This document shows positions 1-6,125 of a stretch of DNA of 6,125 bases, one piece after another. Position numbers and translations under genes: made by a program. Source of the stretch: a virus (Duplodnaviria; Heunggongvirae; Uroviricota; Caudoviricetes); IMG/VR virus record IMGVR_UViG_2695420564_000002, positions 1-6,125 of that record. The stretch is one strand, 5' to 3'. The first letter of the stretch is position 1. Each line of letters starts with the position of its first letter. Below the pieces are notes generated by a model that saw only the letters and a program-made list of their open reading frames with translations, was not told the DNA's origin and ran no database searches.

Positions 1-22
1 GGCAGCGGCAACCAGCGGCTGC

Positions 23-258
23 TGATATTCGCCAGATTATTGTCCAGTTGTTCGCGCACATCAGGACGAATACAAGAAATATGAATATGGAAATGGTTTT
101 GCGTACGCCCGGTTCGGGAGTTTATCGCCAGTGCTGCCTTCAATGCTTTGTGCGCCAACACGTGAAGCGGTCAGCGAGTGGTTGTACCGCCATCATGAGG
201 TTCCGGCAAACGACGATGAAACGCAGGCGCTCTTGCGTCGGGCGATTCGTTATAATCG
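23..258 (+). other. Coding-like open frame fragment of unknown identity, not in the frame of the downstream ydgH-like gene
   Basis: Frame 2 is open from the TGA at 20-22 through 258 and translates to protein-like text (…[56 protein letters not shown]). The frame that is clean downstream (48..734 in the ORF track) gives an Arg/Cys-rich, non-DUF1471-like translation here. N at 259, 263 and 266 separate this segment from the ydgH-like sequence. I do not recognise the protein. Confidence 0.25.
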
Positions 259-919: not shown

Positions 920-1345
920 ATGGAAAAGAAACTGGGACTGAGCGCACTCACCGCGCTGGTATTAAGCTCAATGCTTGGCGCAGGAGTTTTCAGTCTGCCA
1001 CAAAATATGGCGGCAGTTGCCAGCCCGGCAGCATTGCTCATCGGTTGGGGCATCACAGGCGCAGGCATTTTATTACTGGCCTTCGCGATGCTGATTCTTA
1101 CGCGCATTCGTCCCGACCTTGACGGAGGTATCTTTACCTACGCCCGTGAAGGTTTTGGCGAGCTAATCGGCTTCTGCTCCGCGTGGGGATACTGGCTGTG
1201 CGCGGTTATCGCCAACGTTTCCTATCTGGTGATCGTCTTTTCCGCATTAAGTTTCTTCACCGATACACCAGAACTACGCCTGTTTGGCGATGGCAATACC
1301 TGGCAATCGATCGTCGGCGCATCAGCATTATTGTGGATTGTTCAC
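920..1345 (+). CDS. ydgI: 5' part (about 142 codons) of an APC-superfamily amino-acid/polyamine antiporter (arginine:ornithine-antiporter-like); truncated at the N cluster
   Basis: ATG at 920 gives MEKKLGLSALTALVLSSMLGAGVFSLPQNMAAVASPAALLIGWGITGAGILLLAFAMLILTRIRPDLDGGIFTYAREGFGELIGFCSAWGYWLCAVIANVSYLVIVF…ALLWIVH, which I recognise as the N-terminus of E. coli YdgI with the typical first transmembrane helices of APC transporters. The ORF-track start at 872 adds an implausible 16-aa leader. The last unambiguous codon ends at 1345; after the N at 1346-1356 the frame runs into minus-strand phage sequence and stops at 1405. Confidence 0.8.
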
Positions 1346-1357
1346 NNNTTGATNCNG

Positions 1358-2623
1358 CGAAGGATTGATGGAAAGGCAAGCATTAGGAAAGGCAACCGGC
1401 CATGAGTCATCAACAACGACCATATTACCGTCGGTAGATTGCGGCACTGATACCATCTTCCACTGAAGCAGTGCTGTTCGTTGTACTCCACCAATTAATA
1501 CTGGAATAGTGATGTTACCTGCACTGCTGGCCAATGCTGTTGCAGCAGGCATTTTTGCCGCTTCTCCCAAACCAAGGTATGTGAGAAGACCAGCTACATC
1601 CTTTCCACTCAAATTAGTCAGCGTATTGTCCAGCGGTTGTTTACCTGCCAGTGCATTAAGCATTGTCGTGGCAAAGTTCGGGTCATTCCCCAGCGCCGCC
1701 GCCAGTTCGTTCAGTGTATCCAGTGCCGCAGGTGCAGAACCCACCATTGCCGCAATCGCCGATTTCACAAAAGCCGTAGTGGCAATCTGTGTATTGTTGA
1801 CCGACTGCGCCGCCGTGGGGGCTGTTGGCGTTCCGGTGAGTGCCGGACTCGACAGTGGCGCTTTCAGTGCCAGCGCATTGTTAATGGTGGTACTGAATTT
1901 CGGATCATTGTTAATGGCTACGGCTATTTCTTTCAGCGTGTCCAGCGTGGCTGGAGCACCATTAATAAGAGCCGTCAGTGCCGCCTGAACAAACGCGGTG
2001 GTCGCAACCTGCGTGGTGTTATTCCCCGCCGCTGGCGTTGGCGCTTTGGGGGTTCCGGTAAACGTCGGACTTTCTTTGGGTGCATACTGTGAATGCGGGT
2101 CCGGTGCGGCAAGATGTTTTGCCATCAGGTCATCCACGTACACCTTCAGCTCCAGTGCCTTGTCATCCACATACTTGCGGGTTGCCAGCACTACGGCAGG
2201 GTCGATTTTCAGTGTGATATTGTCCGTGCTGCTGGTAATCAACACCATACGCACGGTCTGGGTACGCCCGCTGCCTTCAGCCAGTTGCGGCTTATAGCTT
2301 TCCGGGCAGTTGCCCACGGCAATCAATGCCCCGGACTCATCAAACAGGCCCACTTCACGTATCCACCAACCGCCCTCGTTTTCAGGGATCACCTGTTCAG
2401 CAATAATCTGGCTGCTGTTCTGCGGGTCGATATAGAGCATATTCAGCGCAGCCCGGCGTTTCTCATTTACTAATGCTGTCTGCTTTGCGTTCGGCGTTGG
2501 CAATGTTCCGCCGCCATCGCCGACCGCCATATGGGTAATTTTTAAAGGCACACCGAGCGCGGCGGCGCTGGCAAGTTTCTCCGCGCCAATATCCGTCAGC
2601 AGGGTATAAAATTTTGTGCTCAT
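1358..2623 (-). CDS. H: P2-like tail fibre protein (gpH family), N-terminal about 420 aa only; distal receptor-binding part missing
   Basis: Minus-strand ATG at 2623-2621 overlaps the stop of the upstream I gene (ATGA). N-terminus MSTKFYTLLTDIGAEKLASAAALGVPLKITHMAVGDGGG… and the …ESYKPQLAEGSGRTQTVRMVLITSS… block match the conserved N-terminal domain of P2 gpH as I remember it. Two tandem 74-aa repeats follow. The frame runs into the N cluster at 1346-1356 and ends on a stop inside ydgI antisense sequence, so the natural C-terminus is absent. Confidence 0.8.
1648..2059 (-). repeat. Two diverged tandem repeats of about 222 bp (74 aa) inside the tail-fibre gene
   Basis: Protein repeats TGTPKAPTPAAGNNTTQVATTAFVQAALTALINGAPATLDTLKEIAVAINNDPKFSTTINNALALKAP… and TGTPTAPTAAQSVNNTQIATTAFVKSAIAAMVGSAPAALDTLNELAAALGNDPNFATTMLNALAGKQP…. 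On the plus strand both units end in …GGCGTTCCGGT / …GGGGTTCCGGT (about 1837 and 2059) and begin GCCAGTGCATTAAG / GCCAGCGCATTGTTAATGG (about 1648 and 1869). Coordinates are approximate. Confidence 0.7.
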
Positions 2624-3225
2624 GGATTCACTCTCATTGTGTCAATAACATGGACCGCCCCGCCTTCATGCGCGGTGCCGCCAGAAATAATTGTTTCGTT
2701 GATATACGGATAGATCGTGATTTCTTCGCCAAGATAGCTGGCGGCTCCCACCCAATGCGGGCCGCTGGTCTGCAGGTTGATGGACATGCCGATCATGTGA
2801 CGGCTACATGGTTTGGCATCGCTTATCAGTCGCTCAAGTTCCAGATAGGTATCTTCAGTGATGCCCTGGTCCTGCACGCCGATATCCAGGCGAAACGTGC
2901 CCGGTGTCTCTCCGGTCTGCCACCACTCAATAATGCGGATCAGAAAGCCGAACGGCTCCACCACCCGCCGCACGGCACTGGTGGTCCCTTTATGCTGATG
3001 AATATAAAAAGCATCCTTCACCACCTGGCGCTTGACGCTTTCTGTCCAGCCCTCGTCCCAGCGATCCACAGAGAACGCCCAGGCGAGATAAGGCAGGAAA
3101 CTGACCGGACAGGTTGCCGGATTCCACAAGTCACGCAGCGGCACCTGCAGATCAGTAATCCCGCTGCAGGTTTGCGCCAGTCGGCGCTCCAGTGAAGTTG
3201 AACCCGGTGGCAGCAGACTATTCAT
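2620..3225 (-). CDS. I: P2-like baseplate protein gpI
   Basis: 201-aa ORF starting MNSLLPPGSTSLERRLAQ…LWNPATCPVSFLPYLAWAFSVDRWDEGW…GTFRLDIGV…, closely resembling P2 gpI as I recall it. Strong Shine-Dalgarno GGAGGA 4-5 nt upstream of the ATG at 3225-3223. Its stop overlaps the H start (ATGA at 2620-2623). Confidence 0.85.
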   Translation of the reverse strand: MNSLLPPGSTSLERRLAQTCSGITDLQVPLRDLWNPATCPVSFLPYLAWAFSVDRWDEGWTESVKRQVVKDAFYIHQHKGTTSAVRRVVEPFGFLIRIIEWWQTGETPGTFRLDIGVQDQGITEDTYLELERLISDAKPCSRHMIGMSINLQTSGPHWVGAASYLGEEITIYPYINETIISGGTAHEGGAVHVIDTMRVNP

Positions 3226-4126
3226 CCGTTCCTCCGTTGGTTACGTGCCACTGCGTACATGATGCCGCCTGTGTTTTGTTCAGGACCACATCCGCCAGAG
3301 GAGAAGCCAGCTCCACACGCTGCACACCCTCAACATGCAGGGCGGCAAAGATGGCGCTACGGCGAATATCCCGACCAAGACGCGTCTGACTGGCGATGTA
3401 CTTCTGCAGGCTGACTTTTGCCGCTGCCATTACCGGCTCTGCTTCCGGTCCCGGATAAAGAAAAATGGTGGCTTCCACTCGGTACGGGATGATTTCTGCG
3501 CTGCGAACCGTCAGACGGTTAGCCACCGGGCGGACGTTCTCACTGTTCAGGGCGTTCTCCACCACATCCAGCAAGTCTTTTTCTGCTGTTCCGTCGCCTT
3601 CGCGGCTAAGGACAGTCAGCACCACCTCTGCAGGTGCCGGACTGGTTGCACTGGCATCCGCCACCCGACCGTCGGCGCTTCGTGCATGAAACTCATAAGC
3701 GGCAGTTGGCCCCGCAACAGAAAGCCCTTCAAAGGCTGCAGGCACACGCAGGCGTAATGCTTCATCACTTTCCATCACAGCCGCAACGGGCGGTACAGCG
3801 TCATCATCAGCAGGTGTCACCGTCAGGCGTTTCACGTTGTAGTTAGCAGCGAGCTGGTCAAGATCGCCGCCCATCGCGTAAGCCACCATCACCGCCTGCG
3901 CGGCTTCGTTAATGCGCTGGCGCAGAAGCAACTCACGATAAGCGTTCTCCTGCAACAATTTGGTAACAGGTTCAGATTCCAGTTCCAGCGTGCGGATCAC
4001 AGCTTCCTGCTCATCTTTCGGATGAAGCGCCACAAATTCTGCCTTGCGTTCGGCAAGCAGCGTCTCAAAGTCCGGCACATCCACAATCTGCGGCGCAGGC
4101 AACTGCGAAAGGTCAATCACTGCCAT
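3218..4126 (-). CDS. J: P2-like baseplate wedge protein gpJ
   Basis: The ORF track starts at 4165, but an internal ATG at 4126-4124 is preceded by GGAG with a 6-nt spacer and gives about 302 aa beginning MAVIDLSQLPAPQIVDVPDFETLLAERKAEF…, matching the length and N-terminus of P2 gpJ. Stop TAG at 3220-3218 overlaps the I start by 8 nt. Confidence 0.85.
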   Translation of the reverse strand: MAVIDLSQLPAPQIVDVPDFETLLAERKAEFVALHPKDEQEAVIRTLELESEPVTKLLQENAYRELLLRQRINEAAQAVMVAYAMGGDLDQLAANYNVKRLTVTPADDDAVPPVAAVMESDEALRLRVPAAFEGLSVAGPTAAYEFHARSADGRVADASATSPAPAEVVLTVLSREGDGTAEKDLLDVVENALNSENVRPVANRLTVRSAEIIPYRVEATIFLYPGPEAEPVMAAAKVSLQKYIASQTRLGRDIRRSAIFAALHVEGVQRVELASPLADVVLNKTQAASCTQWHVTNGGTDE

Positions 4127-4472
4127 TCTCTGCTCCTGTTGATACGGAAAGGGAAACAGGCACACCGTTATTACGCCGCCCGGTCAGCGCCACCACCATT
4201 GAACCGTCAAAATGGCTGTTGATGGTGATGGAATCCAGCGTCAGCCGTGGCTCCCAGCGACTCAGCGCCACATACACTGCCGACATGACCTGCAGGCGTA
4301 ACGCCGGATTTTGTGGCTGGTCTATCAGTGCCGACAGCAGGGAACCATATTCACGGCGAGCAATGCGGCTACCCTGCGGCGTCAGCAGAATGTCCCGCAC
4401 CGACTGGCGCAGATGGTCAATATCAGTAATGGCTTTACCGCTGGTATTGTTCATCCCGCTATAAAGCGTCAT
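4113..4472 (-). CDS. W: P2-like baseplate protein gpW (gp25/GPW family)
   Basis: 119-aa ORF MTLYSGMNNTSGKAITDIDHLRQSVRDILLTPQGSRIARREYGSLLSALIDQPQNPALRLQ…, with the GPW/gp25 signature and the size of P2 gpW. GGAGG lies about 7 nt upstream of the ATG at 4472-4470. The start overlaps the V stop (ATGA) and the 3' end overlaps the J start by 14 nt. Confidence 0.85.
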   Translation of the reverse strand: MTLYSGMNNTSGKAITDIDHLRQSVRDILLTPQGSRIARREYGSLLSALIDQPQNPALRLQVMSAVYVALSRWEPRLTLDSITINSHFDGSMVVALTGRRNNGVPVSLSVSTGAENGSD

Positions 4473-5047
4473 ACCGGGCCTCCAGTTGTGTCGCCGCCTT
4501 TCAGGACGCCAGTATGCTGATGCGCATCAACCTCGATCCCGTTAGAACTCATCGCTCCGCCGCCCTGGGTAACGCCACCATTGATCACCACTTCGCTGTT
4601 AATGCGCGTGCGGTCAGCCTCCAGTACAAACTCACTGGTTTTCATGGTGATGTTGTCAGCGGCCTCAATGACCATTGATTTGATGCCCCTGACATACCAG
4701 CGCCCGGTGGCGGGTTCGTATTCAAACCAGCTACCGTCAGGATGTTCTGTCACGCAGGCGTCCGCCGACGTCGACGGTGGTGCGAACTGATTCGAATAGA
4801 CAGCGGGCAGCGCAAAGGCGGTCTCCAGATTGCCGCCCAGACTCAGCAGCACCACCTGCTCACCTTCCGATGGTTTCCACCATGTCCGGGCATTACCCGC
4901 GCGCAGCGTCAGCCAGTTAATCCAGTTGGTTTCAAGGTCGCCCGTTTTCACCCGGCAAAGCCAGTTTTCCCGGTCCACTTCGGTGACTACACCTATGCGG
5001 ATCAGATTGGTGATAAGGCGCATGATTTCGGTTAGTTGTGCGTTCAT
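4469..5047 (-). CDS. V: P2-like baseplate spike protein gpV
   Basis: Start placed at the ATG at 5047-5045 (MNAQLTEIMRLITNLIRIGVVTEVDRENWLCRVKTGDL…WWKPSEGEQVV…HQHTGVLKGGDTTGGPV), which aligns with the N-terminus of P2 gpV. The 81 codons the ORF track adds upstream (to 5290) are antisense to the AT-rich block and are not phage-like. No Shine-Dalgarno precedes this ATG, consistent with loss of the normally coupled upstream gene S. Confidence 0.8.
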   Translation of the reverse strand: MNAQLTEIMRLITNLIRIGVVTEVDRENWLCRVKTGDLETNWINWLTLRAGNARTWWKPSEGEQVVLLSLGGNLETAFALPAVYSNQFAPPSTSADACVTEHPDGSWFEYEPATGRWYVRGIKSMVIEAADNITMKTSEFVLEADRTRINSEVVINGGVTQGGGAMSSNGIEVDAHQHTGVLKGGDTTGGPV

Positions 5048-5085
5048 AGATATATGATGACAGCTGAAAACTTGTTTATAACTTC

Positions 5086-5113
5086 TTGCAAATTGTGGTA
5101 TCGATGGTACAAA
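5086..5113 (+). promoter_or_regulatory. Candidate sigma70 promoter with extended -10 for the AT-rich ORF
   Basis: TTGCAA (5086-5091), 16-nt spacer, then TGgTACAAA (TG at 5105-5106, hexamer 5108-5113), about 40 nt upstream of the ATG at 5151. AGGTGG at 5140-5145 is the ribosome-binding site, 5 nt before the start. Pattern match by eye only. Confidence 0.35.
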
Positions 5114-5150
5114 TTGATAAAAGGATAAAAAACAACCAATAGGTGGATAA

Positions 5151-5957
5151 ATGAGTGTTATGAATCCAATAAGTTCTAATATATTTAATGCTGAATTTTT
5201 AAACACCCCGGCAGCGGCACTTGCCGCATGGATTTCCATTATTGGAGCTGTTATAACTTTGGTGACGATAGTTATAAGAGCACTATTCAAATATAGAAAA
5301 TCTCATGATGTAATTTTGAAAAAATCAGGAATACCTGCGTTTATATTAAATTTTTTTCTTATACGAATATCATTAAAAAGGCTGCCTACTATCACATGGG
5401 CTGAAAAATCAATCACGGTTCTCTTTTCACTTCTTTTTTTGTATGCAATTTATATTTTTGGTCCAGTTTTCATCCAAGCCATTAGAACCCCACCAAATAG
5501 CACATTGCTTTATTGGATAAAGTCCGGTGAATCATTTTATATGTCAAAAAAACTGGCGACTGCAGCTACAATATTAACCACTCCTGATTGGGAAATATCA
5601 AAGGATGATTGCGAAGAGTCATCCTCTGCCAGTACAGAGAAGTACAAATCATTAACTATCGAACATAAAGAAATTCTTTGTAAACTACTAACCACTGATG
5701 AAGGGAATGCTTACATTGATGAAGAAGTCAAGAATTTCGTTAAAGACAAATTCTTTATCTATTCCTTTGCCCCAACAACCATATTTATTCTATTATGGAT
5801 TTCTTTGGGTTTTATACTGACCATTCACTATTCTAAAAAAGTTAGGAAATATATTCTGACTGAACAAAAAAATGCAATTCATTGGGCATATGGTGAATTC
5901 AAGACAGAAGGAATCTATTCAATATATCAAGAGTTAGAACGTAAGACTCACCATTAA
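5151..5957 (+). CDS. Hypothetical 268-aa multi-pass membrane protein, AT-rich, no family recognised; candidate phage moron (accessory or defence-type gene)
   Basis: ATG at 5151 with a strong SD, stop TAA at 5955-5957. Hydrophobic stretches at about aa 21-46 ([26 protein letters not shown]), 60-75, 87-111 ([25 protein letters not shown]) and 206-227 ([21 protein letters not shown]). Basic loops (KYRKSH, KRLP, SKKVRKY) fit the positive-inside rule. An acidic soluble region of about 95 aa sits between helices 3 and 4. Two hand-counted 60-nt lines give about 28% G+C against about 60% in the adjacent tail genes. Opposite strand to the tail operon. Confidence 0.7.
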
Positions 5958-5984
5958 GACCCAACAAACGACGCTCTGCGTAAC

Positions 5985-6125
5985 GCACTTCCGCCACGAA
6001 GGAAGACTCCAGCACGCCAGCACGATGACCGCCAGTTGCGGCCGCCCACGCTTTAGCGATCGCCATTCCTTCGCCTTTCGGATCGTTTTCCGGGTGAACG
6101 GCAATCAGCGTCGGTACACCGAATC
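5985..6125 (-). CDS. ilvC: Internal fragment of ketol-acid reductoisomerase (no start, no stop; runs off the window edge)
   Basis: Minus-strand translation [45 protein letters not shown] matches an internal block of E. coli IlvC as I recall it (…[55 protein letters not shown]…). Similarity stops after …VAEV at plus position 5985. The 27 nt at 5958-5984 are unassigned and the frame reads on without a stop into the AT-rich ORF, so the end is not a natural gene end. Confidence 0.65.

Follow-up and report, generated by a model that had tools for sequence, protein, structure and literature searches.

A DUF6216-family membrane-protein gene as accessory cargo between the tail genes S and V of P2-like prophages, with a putative role in superinfection exclusion

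Background

Situated between the tail completion gene S and the baseplate gene V, the orf30 region of P2-like phages is recognised as a place where genes are acquired horizontally (PMC3091744; PMC6823313). In P2 itself, this slot is occupied by orf30 (protein accession NP_046770), a nonessential gene of 31-37% G+C that is oriented against the late genes; the original prediction for the locus studied here had put an AT-rich P2 gene at this place, and rightly so. The gene described below shares slot, orientation and AT-richness with orf30, and the two proteins (260 aa in Orf30 vs. 268 aa) have three transmembrane (TM) helices, two cysteines in the TM2-TM3 loop, and a short basic tail in common. 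The cysteine region and TM3 of both proteins can be paired in weak collinear alignments, all of them below significance (BLASTP E = 0.62; hhalign probability 6%, E = 0.006 in a single comparison; DUF6216 profile 2.5 bits), and no deeper profile of Orf30 could be built, because all its relatives in phage records and the protein database share at least 80% identity. Differences concern the lack of a Pfam family for Orf30, the arrangement at gene S, which orf30 does not overlap and from which it is separated by a terminator, and the frequency in E. coli, where orf30 is the commoner one (464 genomes vs. 111).

The P2 accessory genes old, tin and Z/fun and the genes of the P2 defence hotspots are likewise AT-rich, independently transcribed and nonessential cargo in fixed slots that is swapped between otherwise near-identical phages (Rousset 2022, PMC9122126; Vassallo 2022, PMC9519451). 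They differ from the present case in that their slots lie elsewhere, one separating gene A from the portal gene and one downstream of the tail-fibre genes, and in that their anti-phage activity has been shown experimentally. In the sections of the hotspot papers searched, the S-V slot is not mentioned and no anti-phage test of it was found; the only hotspot named there by a 2026 survey is one 'within the tail genes', downstream of gpL.

Concerning membrane proteins, Kunado (YmfE) of the cryptic prophage e14 blocks T5-like phages after adsorption; its anti-T5 phenotype has been demonstrated, and it has been proposed to be an exclusion protein that blocks injection at this post-adsorption stage (preprint 10.64898/2026.09.05.749240). 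Like the DUF6216 gene, the Kunado gene is a lone AT-rich gene of a prophage that encodes a multi-pass membrane protein, diverges from its neighbour, and is bound and silenced by H-NS. Homology between the two was considered and rejected: Kunado gives no Pfam hit, scores -1.3 bits against the DUF6216 profile, has four hydrophobic segments, and does not possess the two-cysteine loop. T4 Imm, P22 SieA and HK97 gp15 are small single-gene inner-membrane proteins of phages or prophages that stop DNA entry while leaving adsorption unaffected. The DUF6216 protein shares its general design and genomic logic with these three; searches of BFVD and PDB detected no relationship in sequence or fold, and the DUF6216 protein is larger and has a distinct conserved domain, predicted to be periplasmic and of disulfide type.

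Organization of the S-V slot

The stretch of DNA analysed (hereafter the window) comprises 6,125 bp of an IMG/VR virus record and contains, in this order, gene V, the cargo gene, and a fragment of gene S:

4469-5047, minus strand: gene V (baseplate spike), which opens the late operon divergent from the cargo gene; the annotated V of matching prophages is 579 bp long
5050-5947, no strand: AT-rich cargo cassette in the S-V (orf30) slot, delimited as the stretch without homology to the empty-slot prophage L048, by G+C content and by change points
5151-5957, plus strand: DUF6216-family gene, 268 aa, stop codon included, according to the list of open reading frames (ORFs), PF19723, the RefSeq annotation and dN/dS (0.12-0.26)
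5899-5993, minus strand: 3' fragment of gene S (tail completion), whose codons at 5899-5957 overlap the cargo gene and which is cut off at about 5993

The G+C content amounts to 32.6% in 5048-5957, as compared to 56.5% (4000-5047) and 60.1% (5958-6125) in the flanks, which bears out the initial description of a block with about half the G+C of its surroundings. A two-change-point maximum-likelihood fit places the low-GC segment at 5022-5968. In a blastn comparison with L048, a close relative of the window prophage with nothing in the S-V slot, similarity stops at 5049 and restarts at 5948. The boundaries had been placed exactly at 5047/5048 and 5957/5958; because the homology to L048 breaks at 5049 and 5948, they are good to about 2 bp on the left and about 10 bp on the right. 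The right edge is not clean, as the end of gpS overlaps the ORF. The cassette itself brings along the late promoter of gene V, which Ogr activates, and the final 16-19 or so codons of gene S.

The neighbour gene of the cargo ORF matches Pfam Phage_base_V. A longer listed ORF (4469-5290) was rejected as gene V, since it represents an upstream TTG extension and the 579-bp gene agrees with the annotation of the prophages. On the other side, the translated gpS fragment equals the C-terminus of gpS in intact prophages and can be aligned with that of P2 gpS; the match of the window to the intact prophages, which are 97-99.8% identical, annotated in RefSeq and show the same gene order, runs out at 5993. 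In 16 of 18 IMG/VR loci, a full-length V lies directly upstream of the homologue, the exceptions being a truncated V (L015) and a remnant (L023), and S follows downstream in all except L026, where a capsid-gene fragment has replaced it. The exact protein is encoded in 10 assemblies, eight of which have the V-S arrangement, while two (L033 and L038) are without V-H but keep S and R.

Promoter region of the cargo gene

The left 100 bp or so of the block hold the upstream region of the ORF together with the activator box of the gene V late promoter:

5086-5091, plus strand: candidate -35 hexamer TTGCAA of an own sigma-70 promoter; CTTG-AA shows no change across 11 loci, among them orphan copies without gene V
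5094-5111, minus strand: TGT-N12-ACA dyad, the only one in the window; predicted activator (Ogr) box of PV, from which the late operon V-W-J-I-H is transcribed, overlapping the cargo promoter
5105-5113, plus strand: candidate extended -10 element TGgTACAAA, with a 16-nt spacer from the -35 hexamer and conserved in 11 loci, including orphans
5141-5146, plus strand: ribosome-binding site AGGTGG, 4 nt before the ATG, with its GG core invariant in 11 homologous loci

The ORF starts with ATG and its reading frame is intact, such that the 268-aa ORF and its AGGTGG site are both present as first described. TTGCAA and GATGGTACAA (5103-5112) are almost unchanged across the 11 homologous loci; within the latter, TGGTACAA is invariant and the leading GA near-invariant, orphans included. 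A scan of the window for consensus sigma-70 promoters did not report the TTGCAA/TGgTACAAA pair, because the -10 hexamer TACAAA ends in A and the final T is absent. The original prediction of an own promoter with extended -10 thus fails the consensus scan, but its elements are conserved across homologues. Activity of the promoter is supported by this conservation and by RNA-seq of BL21 hns stpA mutants (see below). A consensus scan for terminators found none after the cargo gene.

In alignment, the dyad of the window falls on the activator-binding site annotated for P2 PV, and its centre is situated 55.5 bp from the V start codon, both in the window and in the empty-slot L048. All five slot variants have such a dyad at the corresponding aligned position upstream of V, with a spacer of N12, but N11 in P2. 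Decay of the TGT half-site to TAT is seen in copies without functional V, namely the orphans L005 and L006 and the remnant L007, though the -35 hexamer and the extended -10 element are kept in the orphans. The left part of the block, at first considered as upstream region of the ORF, does carry its ribosome-binding site and candidate promoter, but houses the gene V activator box too. From the sequence, the cargo gene is directly predicted to possess a ribosome-binding site and a conserved sigma-70-type promoter of its own, the latter interleaved with the Ogr box of the divergent PV.

Family assignment and database searches

The protein had been regarded as novel and as belonging to no recognisable motif or family. 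This does not hold: Pfam DUF6216 (PF19723) is matched with 44.6 bits (gathering cutoff 27.3; E = 1.5e-11), with aa 73-237 aligned to profile positions 115-265 of 270, and RefSeq applies the label 'DUF6216 family protein' to the gene in 111 of 5,426 complete E. coli genomes, REL606 and BL21 among them. All close homologues bear precomputed PF19723 matches, and the three TM helices with two conserved cysteines in the TM2-TM3 loop that characterise DUF6216 are found in a 44-sequence alignment. The block is a real accessory gene, already catalogued as DUF6216 and uncharacterised. The family is small and confined to Enterobacterales, with 50 clusters among 1.84 billion representatives.

Neither the PADLOC-DB v2 defence models (0 families at E up to 1) nor PHROGs (nothing below E = 0.1) gave a match, and a search of NCBIfam yielded nothing meaningful. 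The AlphaFold2 model found no fold relatives in BFVD (nothing below E = 0.39) or PDB. A reading of TM1 as a holin was rejected, as the HP1 family PF16080 reaches 14.5 bits at a cutoff of 28.8 and covers aa 23-52 only; the PHROG holin match has E = 0.26. Searches of the literature found no functional test of any DUF6216 protein. Among the INPHARED phage isolates, neither the block nor the protein had a match in DNA and tblastn searches. The DUF6216 gene is known only from prophages and IMG/VR viral contigs.

Topology and conserved domain

Hydropathy and the AlphaFold2 model (mean pLDDT of the whole protein 79.8) agree on three TM helices (aa 22-45, 87-108 and 201-224) instead of the about four originally proposed, since a fourth hydrophobic stretch (aa 63-75) comprises 13 residues only. 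The following parts, all on the plus strand, are distinguished:

5214-5285: TM helix 1 (aa 22-45), with the N-terminus predicted to be periplasmic; Kyte-Doolittle maximum 2.58, AlphaFold2 helix 20-46
5286-5408: predicted basic cytoplasmic loop (aa 46-86; 9 K/R vs. 2 D/E) with a conserved short amphipathic segment
5409-5474: TM helix 2 (aa 87-108); Kyte-Doolittle maximum 2.35, AlphaFold2 helix 83-112
5475-5750: predicted periplasmic alpha/beta domain (aa 109-200), acidic (net charge -4), with Cys154 (5610-5612) and Cys177 (5679-5681)
5751-5822: TM helix 3 (aa 201-224); Kyte-Doolittle maximum 2.07, within AlphaFold2 helix 183-246
5823-5954: predicted basic cytoplasmic tail (aa 225-268; net charge +3), whose last 19 codons are dual-coding with gpS

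An acidic soluble domain of about 95 aa and a basic C-terminal tail had been anticipated, and both were recovered (92 aa in the case of the domain). TM1 has no K/R before the helix and five immediately after it, and all three helices are predicted to obey the positive-inside rule, from which the periplasmic placement of aa 109-200 follows. The protein is thus directly predicted to be an inner-membrane protein with its N-terminus outside, followed by TM1, a basic cytoplasmic loop, TM2, a periplasmic alpha/beta domain of about 90 aa, TM3 and a basic cytoplasmic tail.

In the 44-sequence alignment (14-94% identity), C154 and C177 are the sole invariant columns, whereas P114, F129 and W147 are near-invariant; the two cysteines probably pair as a disulfide. 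For aa 109-200, AlphaFold2 models four strands plus helices at a pLDDT of about 80-90. In the cytoplasmic loop, the residues G60, P62, F64, L66, N67, F69, I73, L78 and P79 are invariant in an alignment of 23 sequences, and the amphipathic motif is still discernible in the 44-sequence consensus. The tail motif GEFK.EGIY.IY.ELE exists only in the close subfamily (at least 50% identical), including some derived ybjL orphans, and is absent in the relatives of 234-246 aa.

Distribution and slot variants

Homologues recur between S and V of P2-like prophages down to 18% identity: those at 47-50% (L008, L025 and L026) and the one at 18% from Tatumella (L044) adjoin V, and S is found on the other side in each of them save L026 with its capsid-gene fragment. 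Concerning close relatives of the window prophage, L050 and L051 contain unrelated AT-rich cargo in the slot that is empty in L048. The gene is present in 111 genomes vs. 1,047 with the same V-gene type, i.e., absent from about 90%, and one V-type genome without it, when examined, had an empty slot within an otherwise intact tail-lysis block. Because related prophages go without it, the gene is dispensable for phage growth. A horizontally exchanged accessory ('moron') cassette in the orf30 position, as originally proposed, is supported by the location of the cassette in the S-V slot and by close relatives that are empty there or possess other AT-rich cargo. Judged from the sequence, it is predicted to travel among P2-like phages by recombination in the flanking genes V and S, bringing its own PV region and gpS C-terminus. 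No defence genes are known among the other cargos of the slot (L050, L051 and Orf30), and guilt by association is unavailable, because these are equally uncharacterised.

Orphan copies are situated at the ybjL-rcdA prophage site, amid prophage debris only, in at least six enterobacterial lineages. They are intact in Citrobacter youngae, C. sedlakii, Scandinavium, Franconibacter, Enterobacter kobei, Cedecea and further Enterobacteriaceae, and their loci still hold debris of V, S, ogr, CI and int. In the tree, the orphans are interspersed with phage-borne copies, and the G+C content of older ones has risen to 41-47%. The capture of a chromosomal ybjL-locus gene by imprecise excision was considered and rejected, since the gene is located amid the late genes and not beside att, and the orphans hold phage debris. 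Full-length ORFs are kept from 100% to 18% identity, and dN/dS values of 0.12-0.26 indicate purifying selection. As the gene stays intact and under purifying selection when the prophage decays, it probably confers a benefit to the host.

DUF6216 relatives are mostly tied to cargo slots of temperate phages; some distant members sit in non-phage contexts. In a lambdoid prophage, one relative (33% identity) occupies the interval from the Q antiterminator to the holin gene, which it shares with a ParE/HTH pair and a DNA methyltransferase; its presence there shows the family to be general temperate-phage cargo. This Q-to-lysis locus is the position of stx and other morons. The lambdoid relative has late-gene orientation and would be read from the late promoter, whereas the window gene is divergent and, as predicted, self-promoted.

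H-NS silencing in E. coli B

The near-identical gene of BL21 lies under an H-NS ChIP-seq peak and is derepressed in an hns stpA mutant, in which RNA-seq finds it transcribed; in BL21, it is H-NS-silenced together with retron Eco1 (preprint 10.64898/2026.09.05.749240). Silencing by H-NS and retention in decayed prophages are consistent with a host-beneficial, possibly defensive, role. E. coli B is the classical host of T1-T7. That it carries the gene constitutes an objection to an exclusion function, which is weakened because H-NS silences the gene.

Possible function

A defence role of the cargo protein, most likely in superinfection exclusion, is plausible and is here regarded as putative. 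We tentatively favour, at less than even confidence, a single-gene exclusion factor: the DUF6216 protein would reside in the inner membrane with its conserved domain facing the periplasm, and this domain would interfere with the genome delivery of an incoming phage, possibly by targeting phage ejection or tape-measure proteins or an inner-membrane component that these use. Sensing of the infection in the cytoplasm would not be part of such a mechanism. An action in the envelope is suggested by the three positive-inside TM helices and by the fact that the only two invariant residues are both cysteines in the predicted periplasmic loop, and exclusion is suggested by analogy to Kunado, also an AT-rich, H-NS-silenced single gene for a membrane protein. 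Against exclusion count the lack of a PADLOC or PHROGs match, the absence from INPHARED isolates and the distant relatives in non-phage contexts; furthermore, a benefit to the host need not be anti-phage, and domain location and disulfide are predictions only.

A benefit of another kind would be provided by an envelope factor for lysogenic conversion or fitness that is unrelated to phages (stress or serum resistance, colonisation, bacteriocin or tailocin immunity), comparable to the lambda morons bor and lom. The long retention as a chromosomal orphan near rcdA in several genera, with a G+C content climbing toward that of the host, would fit such a factor, as would the purifying selection, the relatives outside phage contexts and the empty defence-database search. 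We consider it rather unlikely, as the Pfam search gave no adhesin, enzyme or transporter signature, and the small, Enterobacterales-confined family is mostly found in temperate-phage cargo slots, where exclusion genes are common. If the protein instead acted in abortive infection, it would be silent in the lysogen and depolarise or permeabilise the inner membrane upon a phage trigger, similar to RexB-type or to retron and CBASS transmembrane effectors. It is indeed a multi-pass prophage membrane protein, silenced by H-NS as toxic genes often are, and its TM1 bears the likeness to HP1-family holins mentioned above; that match, however, is below threshold and spans 30 residues only, a sensor partner is absent in all contexts examined, conservation peaks in the periplasmic domain and its cysteines rather than in the helices, and the single gene is tolerated as a stable chromosomal orphan, all of which makes such an effector improbable.

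The location between tail-completion and baseplate genes, beside the lysis cassette region of P2-like phages, the position directly upstream of the holin gene in one lambdoid prophage, and the physical coupling of the 3' end to gpS could also indicate an accessory of the phage life cycle, e.g., a modulator of lysis timing or of tail and baseplate assembly that is not directed at the host. This is very improbable for a gene oriented against the late operons, with a sigma-70-type promoter of its own, missing from most genomes with the same V type (one of them with the empty slot in an otherwise intact tail-lysis block), and retained after the loss of all structural genes, the more so as the P2 occupant of this slot, orf30, is annotated as nonessential. 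Finally, AT-rich DNA has few G+C-rich stop-free constraints and a function is unassigned, such that a chance ORF or a decaying pseudogene in an AT-rich spacer might be invoked; the full-length conservation down to 18% identity, the dN/dS values, the conserved ribosome-binding site and promoter, the confident AlphaFold2 model and the transcription in BL21 hns stpA effectively refute it.

Returning to the favoured reading as an exclusion factor, its extension to the entire family is doubtful. DUF6216 would then be a new family of single-gene anti-phage proteins that sit in the inner membrane, face the periplasm and are carried in the S-V slot, as a third and hitherto unmined cargo slot of P2-like phages, and in the lambdoid Q-lysis slot; it would have been repeatedly domesticated by enterobacteria at ybjL-rcdA and be H-NS-silent in laboratory strains such as BL21 and REL606, such that its phenotype went unnoticed, and P2 Orf30 would be a distant member with the same role.

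Significance

P2-like phages have three regions long recognised as foreign DNA, of which the S-V (orf30) slot is one. Many defence systems have come from the other two, whereas no S-V cargo has a known function. DUF6216 is what is left after prophages at ybjL-rcdA have decayed in several enterobacterial genera, which is a strong hint of a function at the level of the host. Since the gene is present and H-NS-silenced in the E. coli B strains REL606 and BL21, this is directly testable with standard strains and phage panels. If the gene does not encode an exclusion factor, it would be an ordinary uncharacterised moron; if it does, the defence catalogue would gain a new membrane-protein family, and P2 orf30 might find its explanation.

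Gene content and mosaic structure

Genes of P2 type and the 268-aa ORF in the window (coordinates, strand, product)
1328-2623, minus strand, H, tail fibre, truncated (431 codons versus 467-576 in intact relatives)
2620-3225, minus strand, I, P2-type baseplate/tail-fibre set
about 3218-4126, minus strand, J, P2-type baseplate/tail-fibre set
4113-4472, minus strand, W, P2-type baseplate/tail-fibre set
4469-5047, minus strand, V, P2-type baseplate/tail-fibre set
5151-5957, plus strand, 268-aa ORF, from the ORF list

Window positions 1553-5993 align collinearly with P2-like prophages of E. coli: the one in strain GPEC1405 is 99.8% identical, and the defective one carried by E. coli B (REL606 and BL21) is 97.2% identical. 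In these prophages the ORF, named 'DUF6216 family protein' in RefSeq, has V (annotated 'phage baseplate assembly protein V') on one side and S ('phage virion morphogenesis protein') on the other. The original prediction placed the AT-rich block beside the tail genes; this adjacency is real, given that the same order is found in E. coli prophages, the two adjoining in 111 of 5,426 complete E. coli genomes.

The P2 segment (about 1357-5993) is flanked by unlinked host-gene fragments, i.e., the window is a mosaic.

Host-gene matches in the window
1-131, cdh (94% identity)
132-261, yegD
261-1345, ydgH and the 5' part of ydgI (about 89% identity)
5986-6125, ilvC (93% identity)

Ns occur at two junctions (259, 263, 266 and 1346-1348, 1354, 1356), H runs into the N-containing junction with ydgI, and S and ilvC meet in an 8-bp overlap. 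In no complete E. coli genome does a single region cover more than 73% of the window. Such a mosaic suggests either a chimeric assembly or extensive rearrangement in the genome of a non-E. coli Escherichia, and the outer context of the window should not be trusted; the window itself is one more truncated prophage remnant. The closest prophage has no match to the distal part of H (about 1357-1552), which is unsurprising because the receptor-binding end is variable.

The S-V slot and the distribution of the family

A V gene of the same type is present in 1,047 complete E. coli genomes; the slot between S and V is occupied by DUF6216 in 111 and P2 orf30 DNA is present in 464. Four V-positive genomes sampled showed four slot states: empty (L048), DUF6216, a 288-aa AT-rich soluble protein without family (L051, 2475-3341, 33% G+C), and a membrane-type ORF interrupted by IS1 (L050, 2472-4010). 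None of the other slot cargos tested matched PADLOC or Pfam, and those of L050 and L051 might be worth testing beside DUF6216. Phage R18C is reported to carry yet another ORF, of 741 bp, in the slot (PMC6823313), and the orf30 region has been grouped with the TO and Z regions as sites of horizontally acquired genes in P2-like phages (PMC3091744). In the large papers on P2 defence hotspots, the sections that were searched centre on the A-portal and Z/fun hotspots, plus int-proximal sites, and contain no mention of the S-V slot; those of a 2026 survey name only a hotspot located within the tail genes, downstream of gpL.

The original prediction placed orf30 correctly between S and V in P2. P2 Orf30 resembles the window protein in length (260 aa), orientation, composition, three transmembrane segments, a basic tail and two loop cysteines (C177 and C194 in Orf30). 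The alignment of the two proteins is collinear and non-significant (BLASTP E = 0.62, hhalign probability 6%, profile score 2.5 bits), and a search for diverged Orf30 family members for a better profile found none.

Of the 18 viral contigs from IMG/VR, 16 have a full-length V immediately upstream, and only L026, where a capsid-gene fragment replaces S, lacks S on the downstream side; V is truncated in L015, and L023 is a remnant. The order V-ORF-S is likewise found in eight of ten assemblies with the exact protein, whereas in the other two (E. coli assemblies L033 and L038) ogr is followed by a deletion of V through H and then by DUF6216, S and R, showing an intermediate state of prophage decay. 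Proteins of 47-50% identity also occupy the slot in Buttiauxella and metagenomic prophages (L008, L025 and L026, the last with its capsid-gene fragment), as does a Tatumella protein of 18% identity (L044), such that the association with the slot is old. Homologues thus recur between S and V genes in most IMG/VR contigs and down to 18% identity, a recurrence about which the original prediction had asked. In a lambdoid prophage (L027, 5492-8741; L028), a member of 33% identity belongs to a cargo cluster that separates the Q antiterminator from the holin gene and also comprises an HTH/ParE toxin-antitoxin pair and an N6/N4 DNA methyltransferase, and two distant members are found in non-phage neighbourhoods. 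Four loci (L034, L037, L040 and L041, about 19100-20800) combine an identical DUF6216 gene with differing cargo in the portal-proximal defence hotspot (including SIR2 with a ParA-like ATPase, HIRAN, and a PDDEXK protein), indicating that the two slots assort independently.

Family, topology and structure of the protein

No family had been recognised originally, but the protein belongs to Pfam DUF6216, its score of 44.6 bits exceeding the gathering threshold of 27.3. Close homologues, sharing at least 50% identity, form 32 clusters at 90% identity, all named ones from Enterobacterales. When 1.84 billion representative proteins were searched exhaustively with the profile, only 50 clusters emerged at E < 1e-3, with named members from Cedecea, Franconibacter, Enterobacter, Tatumella and Kosakonia.

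Instead of about four transmembrane helices, three are convincing (aa 22-45, 87-108 and 201-224); the hydrophobic stretch at aa 63-75 comprises 13 residues only and appears in the AlphaFold2 model as a short helix separate from the three long ones. The acidic soluble domain (aa 109-200, net -4) and the basic C-terminal tail (aa 225-268, net +3) were confirmed. Following the positive-inside rule, the N-terminus is predicted outside, as no K/R precedes the first helix, the loop aa 46-86 (9 K/R) and the tail inside, and the domain aa 109-200 outside. In an alignment of 44 sequences (14-94% identity), Cys154 and Cys177 are the sole invariant columns, and Pro114, Phe129 and Trp147 are near-invariant; all five are situated in the loop between the second and third helices. 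Two invariant cysteines in a predicted extracytoplasmic domain suggest a structural disulfide. The AlphaFold2 model is confident (mean pLDDT 79.8, pTM 0.62; pLDDT 79.2 for the domain modelled alone) and exhibits three long helices and, at aa 113-182, a small four-stranded sheet with helices; the BFVD contained no structural relative below E = 0.39. This is a predicted three-pass inner-membrane protein, whose most constrained part is the two-cysteine domain, predicted to be extracytoplasmic.

Boundaries of the cassette

The AT-richness of the block is evident, with a G+C content of 32.6% (5048-5957) versus 56.5% in the left and 60.1% in the right flank; a likelihood two-change-point fit places the low-GC segment at 5022-5968. 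Homology to L048, a near-identical prophage with an empty slot (68 bp from the S stop to the V start), ends at window position 5049 and restarts at 5948, so that the boundaries first proposed are correct to within 2 bp (left) and 10 bp (right). The cassette is a replacement module and not a simple insertion. In a dual-coding, convergent overlap of 59 bp (5899-5957), the final 19 codons of gpS on the minus strand run over the final 19 codons of the ORF; this gpS stretch aligns with the genuine C-terminus of P2 gpS (...LLGFTGEDVQMIEEIILAHLER) and differs from that of the empty-slot phage (...LLGVNDDVEAMTRDMILQWLAG). The overlap corresponds almost exactly to a C-terminal extension of the ORF, GEFK.EGIY.IY.ELE, which is restricted to the close, mostly P2-borne subfamily (identity of at least 50%) and is absent from relatives of 234-246 aa; it may be the reason for the strong conservation of the DUF6216 tail in that subfamily.

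Expression signals and regulation

As originally described, the ORF starts with an ATG at 5151, preceded by the ribosome-binding site AGGTGG (5141-5146). A consensus scan called neither a sigma-70 promoter before the ORF nor a terminator behind it, but the proposed promoter element is conserved: in an alignment of 135 bp upstream from 11 loci, with protein identities from 94% down to 47%, CTTG-AA (-35 TTGCAA, 5086-5091) and GATGGTACAA (TGn and -10 TACAAA, 5105-5113, spacer of 16 nt) are almost invariant, with variable sequence between them.

P2 late promoters have an Ogr/Delta activator box of the form TGT-N12-ACA. The only such dyad of the window (5094-5111) lies within the 103-bp spacer, its centre 55.5 bp from the V start codon both here and in the empty-slot L048, and aligns with the P2 site annotated 'activator binding site; activation of pV promoter', PV being the late promoter of the V-W-J-I-H operon. 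An equivalent dyad is found at the same aligned position in five of five slot variants (DUF6216, two other cargos, P2 orf30, empty), with N11 in P2. Outside the dyad the spacer is unrelated between variants and, like the gpS C-terminus, variant-specific, which indicates that each cargo carries its own PV and gpS C-terminus and implies that cargos would be exchanged by recombination inside V and S.

The Ogr box is situated inside the putative cargo promoter (5086-5113), its ACA being part of the -10 hexamer, such that the divergent cargo promoter and PV are predicted to be physically interleaved. In loci without functional V (orphans L005 and L006, remnant L007), the -35/-10 elements persist, whereas the TGT half-site has changed to TAT, the pattern of a promoter serving the cargo gene and not V. 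Late in infection, bound Ogr could hinder transcription of the cargo gene, and the arrangement suggests mutually exclusive use of the two promoters in the lysogen and in late infection.

The regulation of the gene has independent experimental support from BL21, whose DUF6216 protein is 99% identical to that of the window: in the P2-like remnant of BL21-AI, three H-NS ChIP-seq peaks cover the retron Eco1 RT gene, its Ndt effector gene and 'DUF6216', and transcription of all three regions is raised in an hns stpA mutant, i.e., the gene is bound and silenced by H-NS (preprint 10.64898/2026.09.05.749240).

Orphan copies and selection

At ybjL-rcdA, the integration site of the E. coli B-type P2-like prophage, several enterobacterial genera possess intact DUF6216 genes accompanied by prophage debris only: V, S and R fragments in C. 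youngae, a 28-aa S fragment in C. sedlakii, an ogr remnant in an uncultured Enterobacteriaceae MAG, and V, S, CI and int fragments in Scandinavium (L007). In Franconibacter, Cedecea (L042), Enterobacter kobei (L030, where no rcdA match was found at the locus) and the metagenomic L043, the gene abuts rcdA or adjacent locus genes. The region (L029, L030, L042, L043, L005, L006) is a graveyard of P2-like prophages. Since in L030, L042 and L043 newer int, orf89 or CI debris lies between ybjL and the DUF6216 gene at the rcdA end, serial integrations are suggested, the older remnant being reduced to this gene alone. In the Scandinavium remnant (6836-7432 and 9861-11846), genes for a GIY-YIG nuclease domain, a CI repressor and an OLD-like protein (AAA ATPase and TOPRIM) are kept beside the DUF6216 gene, several defence-type genes thus surviving together in a decayed prophage.

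Phage-borne and orphan copies are interspersed in a neighbour-joining tree, which is indicative only (no bootstrap). Pairwise dN/dS is 0.12-0.26 among diverged pairs including orphans and remnants, and G+C content is 41-47% in the deepest or older orphans versus 33-39% in the copies closest to that of the window, most of them phage-borne. These data are most simply explained if prophages decayed repeatedly and selection kept the DUF6216 gene.

Possible function

The cargo gene is dispensable, has its own conserved promoter, is under purifying selection and is retained after prophage decay; a non-functional ORF is thus hardly credible, and we infer that the gene benefits its host. As to how, superinfection exclusion is tentatively the most likely activity, considering that the conserved surface is predicted to face the periplasm and that the gene would act singly: a single-gene inner-membrane protein would block an incoming phage at the genome-delivery step. 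The exclusion proposed here resembles that proposed for Kunado/YmfE of e14, which is non-homologous and likewise silenced by H-NS. E. coli B, the classical host of T1-T7, carries the gene, an objection to exclusion that is weakened by the H-NS silencing data.

A fitness function of the envelope unrelated to phages appears unlikely but deserves more weight than an abortive-infection membrane effector, which is improbable; an accessory role in the phage life cycle is more improbable still. What probability remains is left to functions not thought of here.

The feature is real and was well described by the original prediction. The gene belongs to a family that is already catalogued, though uncharacterised, and occupies one of the recognised variable slots of P2-like phages, so that it is not a new kind of element. 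The present analysis adds where exactly the cassette begins and ends, its dual-coding overlap with gpS, the interleaving of promoter and Ogr box, the three-helix topology with its conserved, predicted periplasmic two-cysteine domain, and the repeated domestication at ybjL-rcdA. The function of the gene is directly testable in BL21 or REL606.
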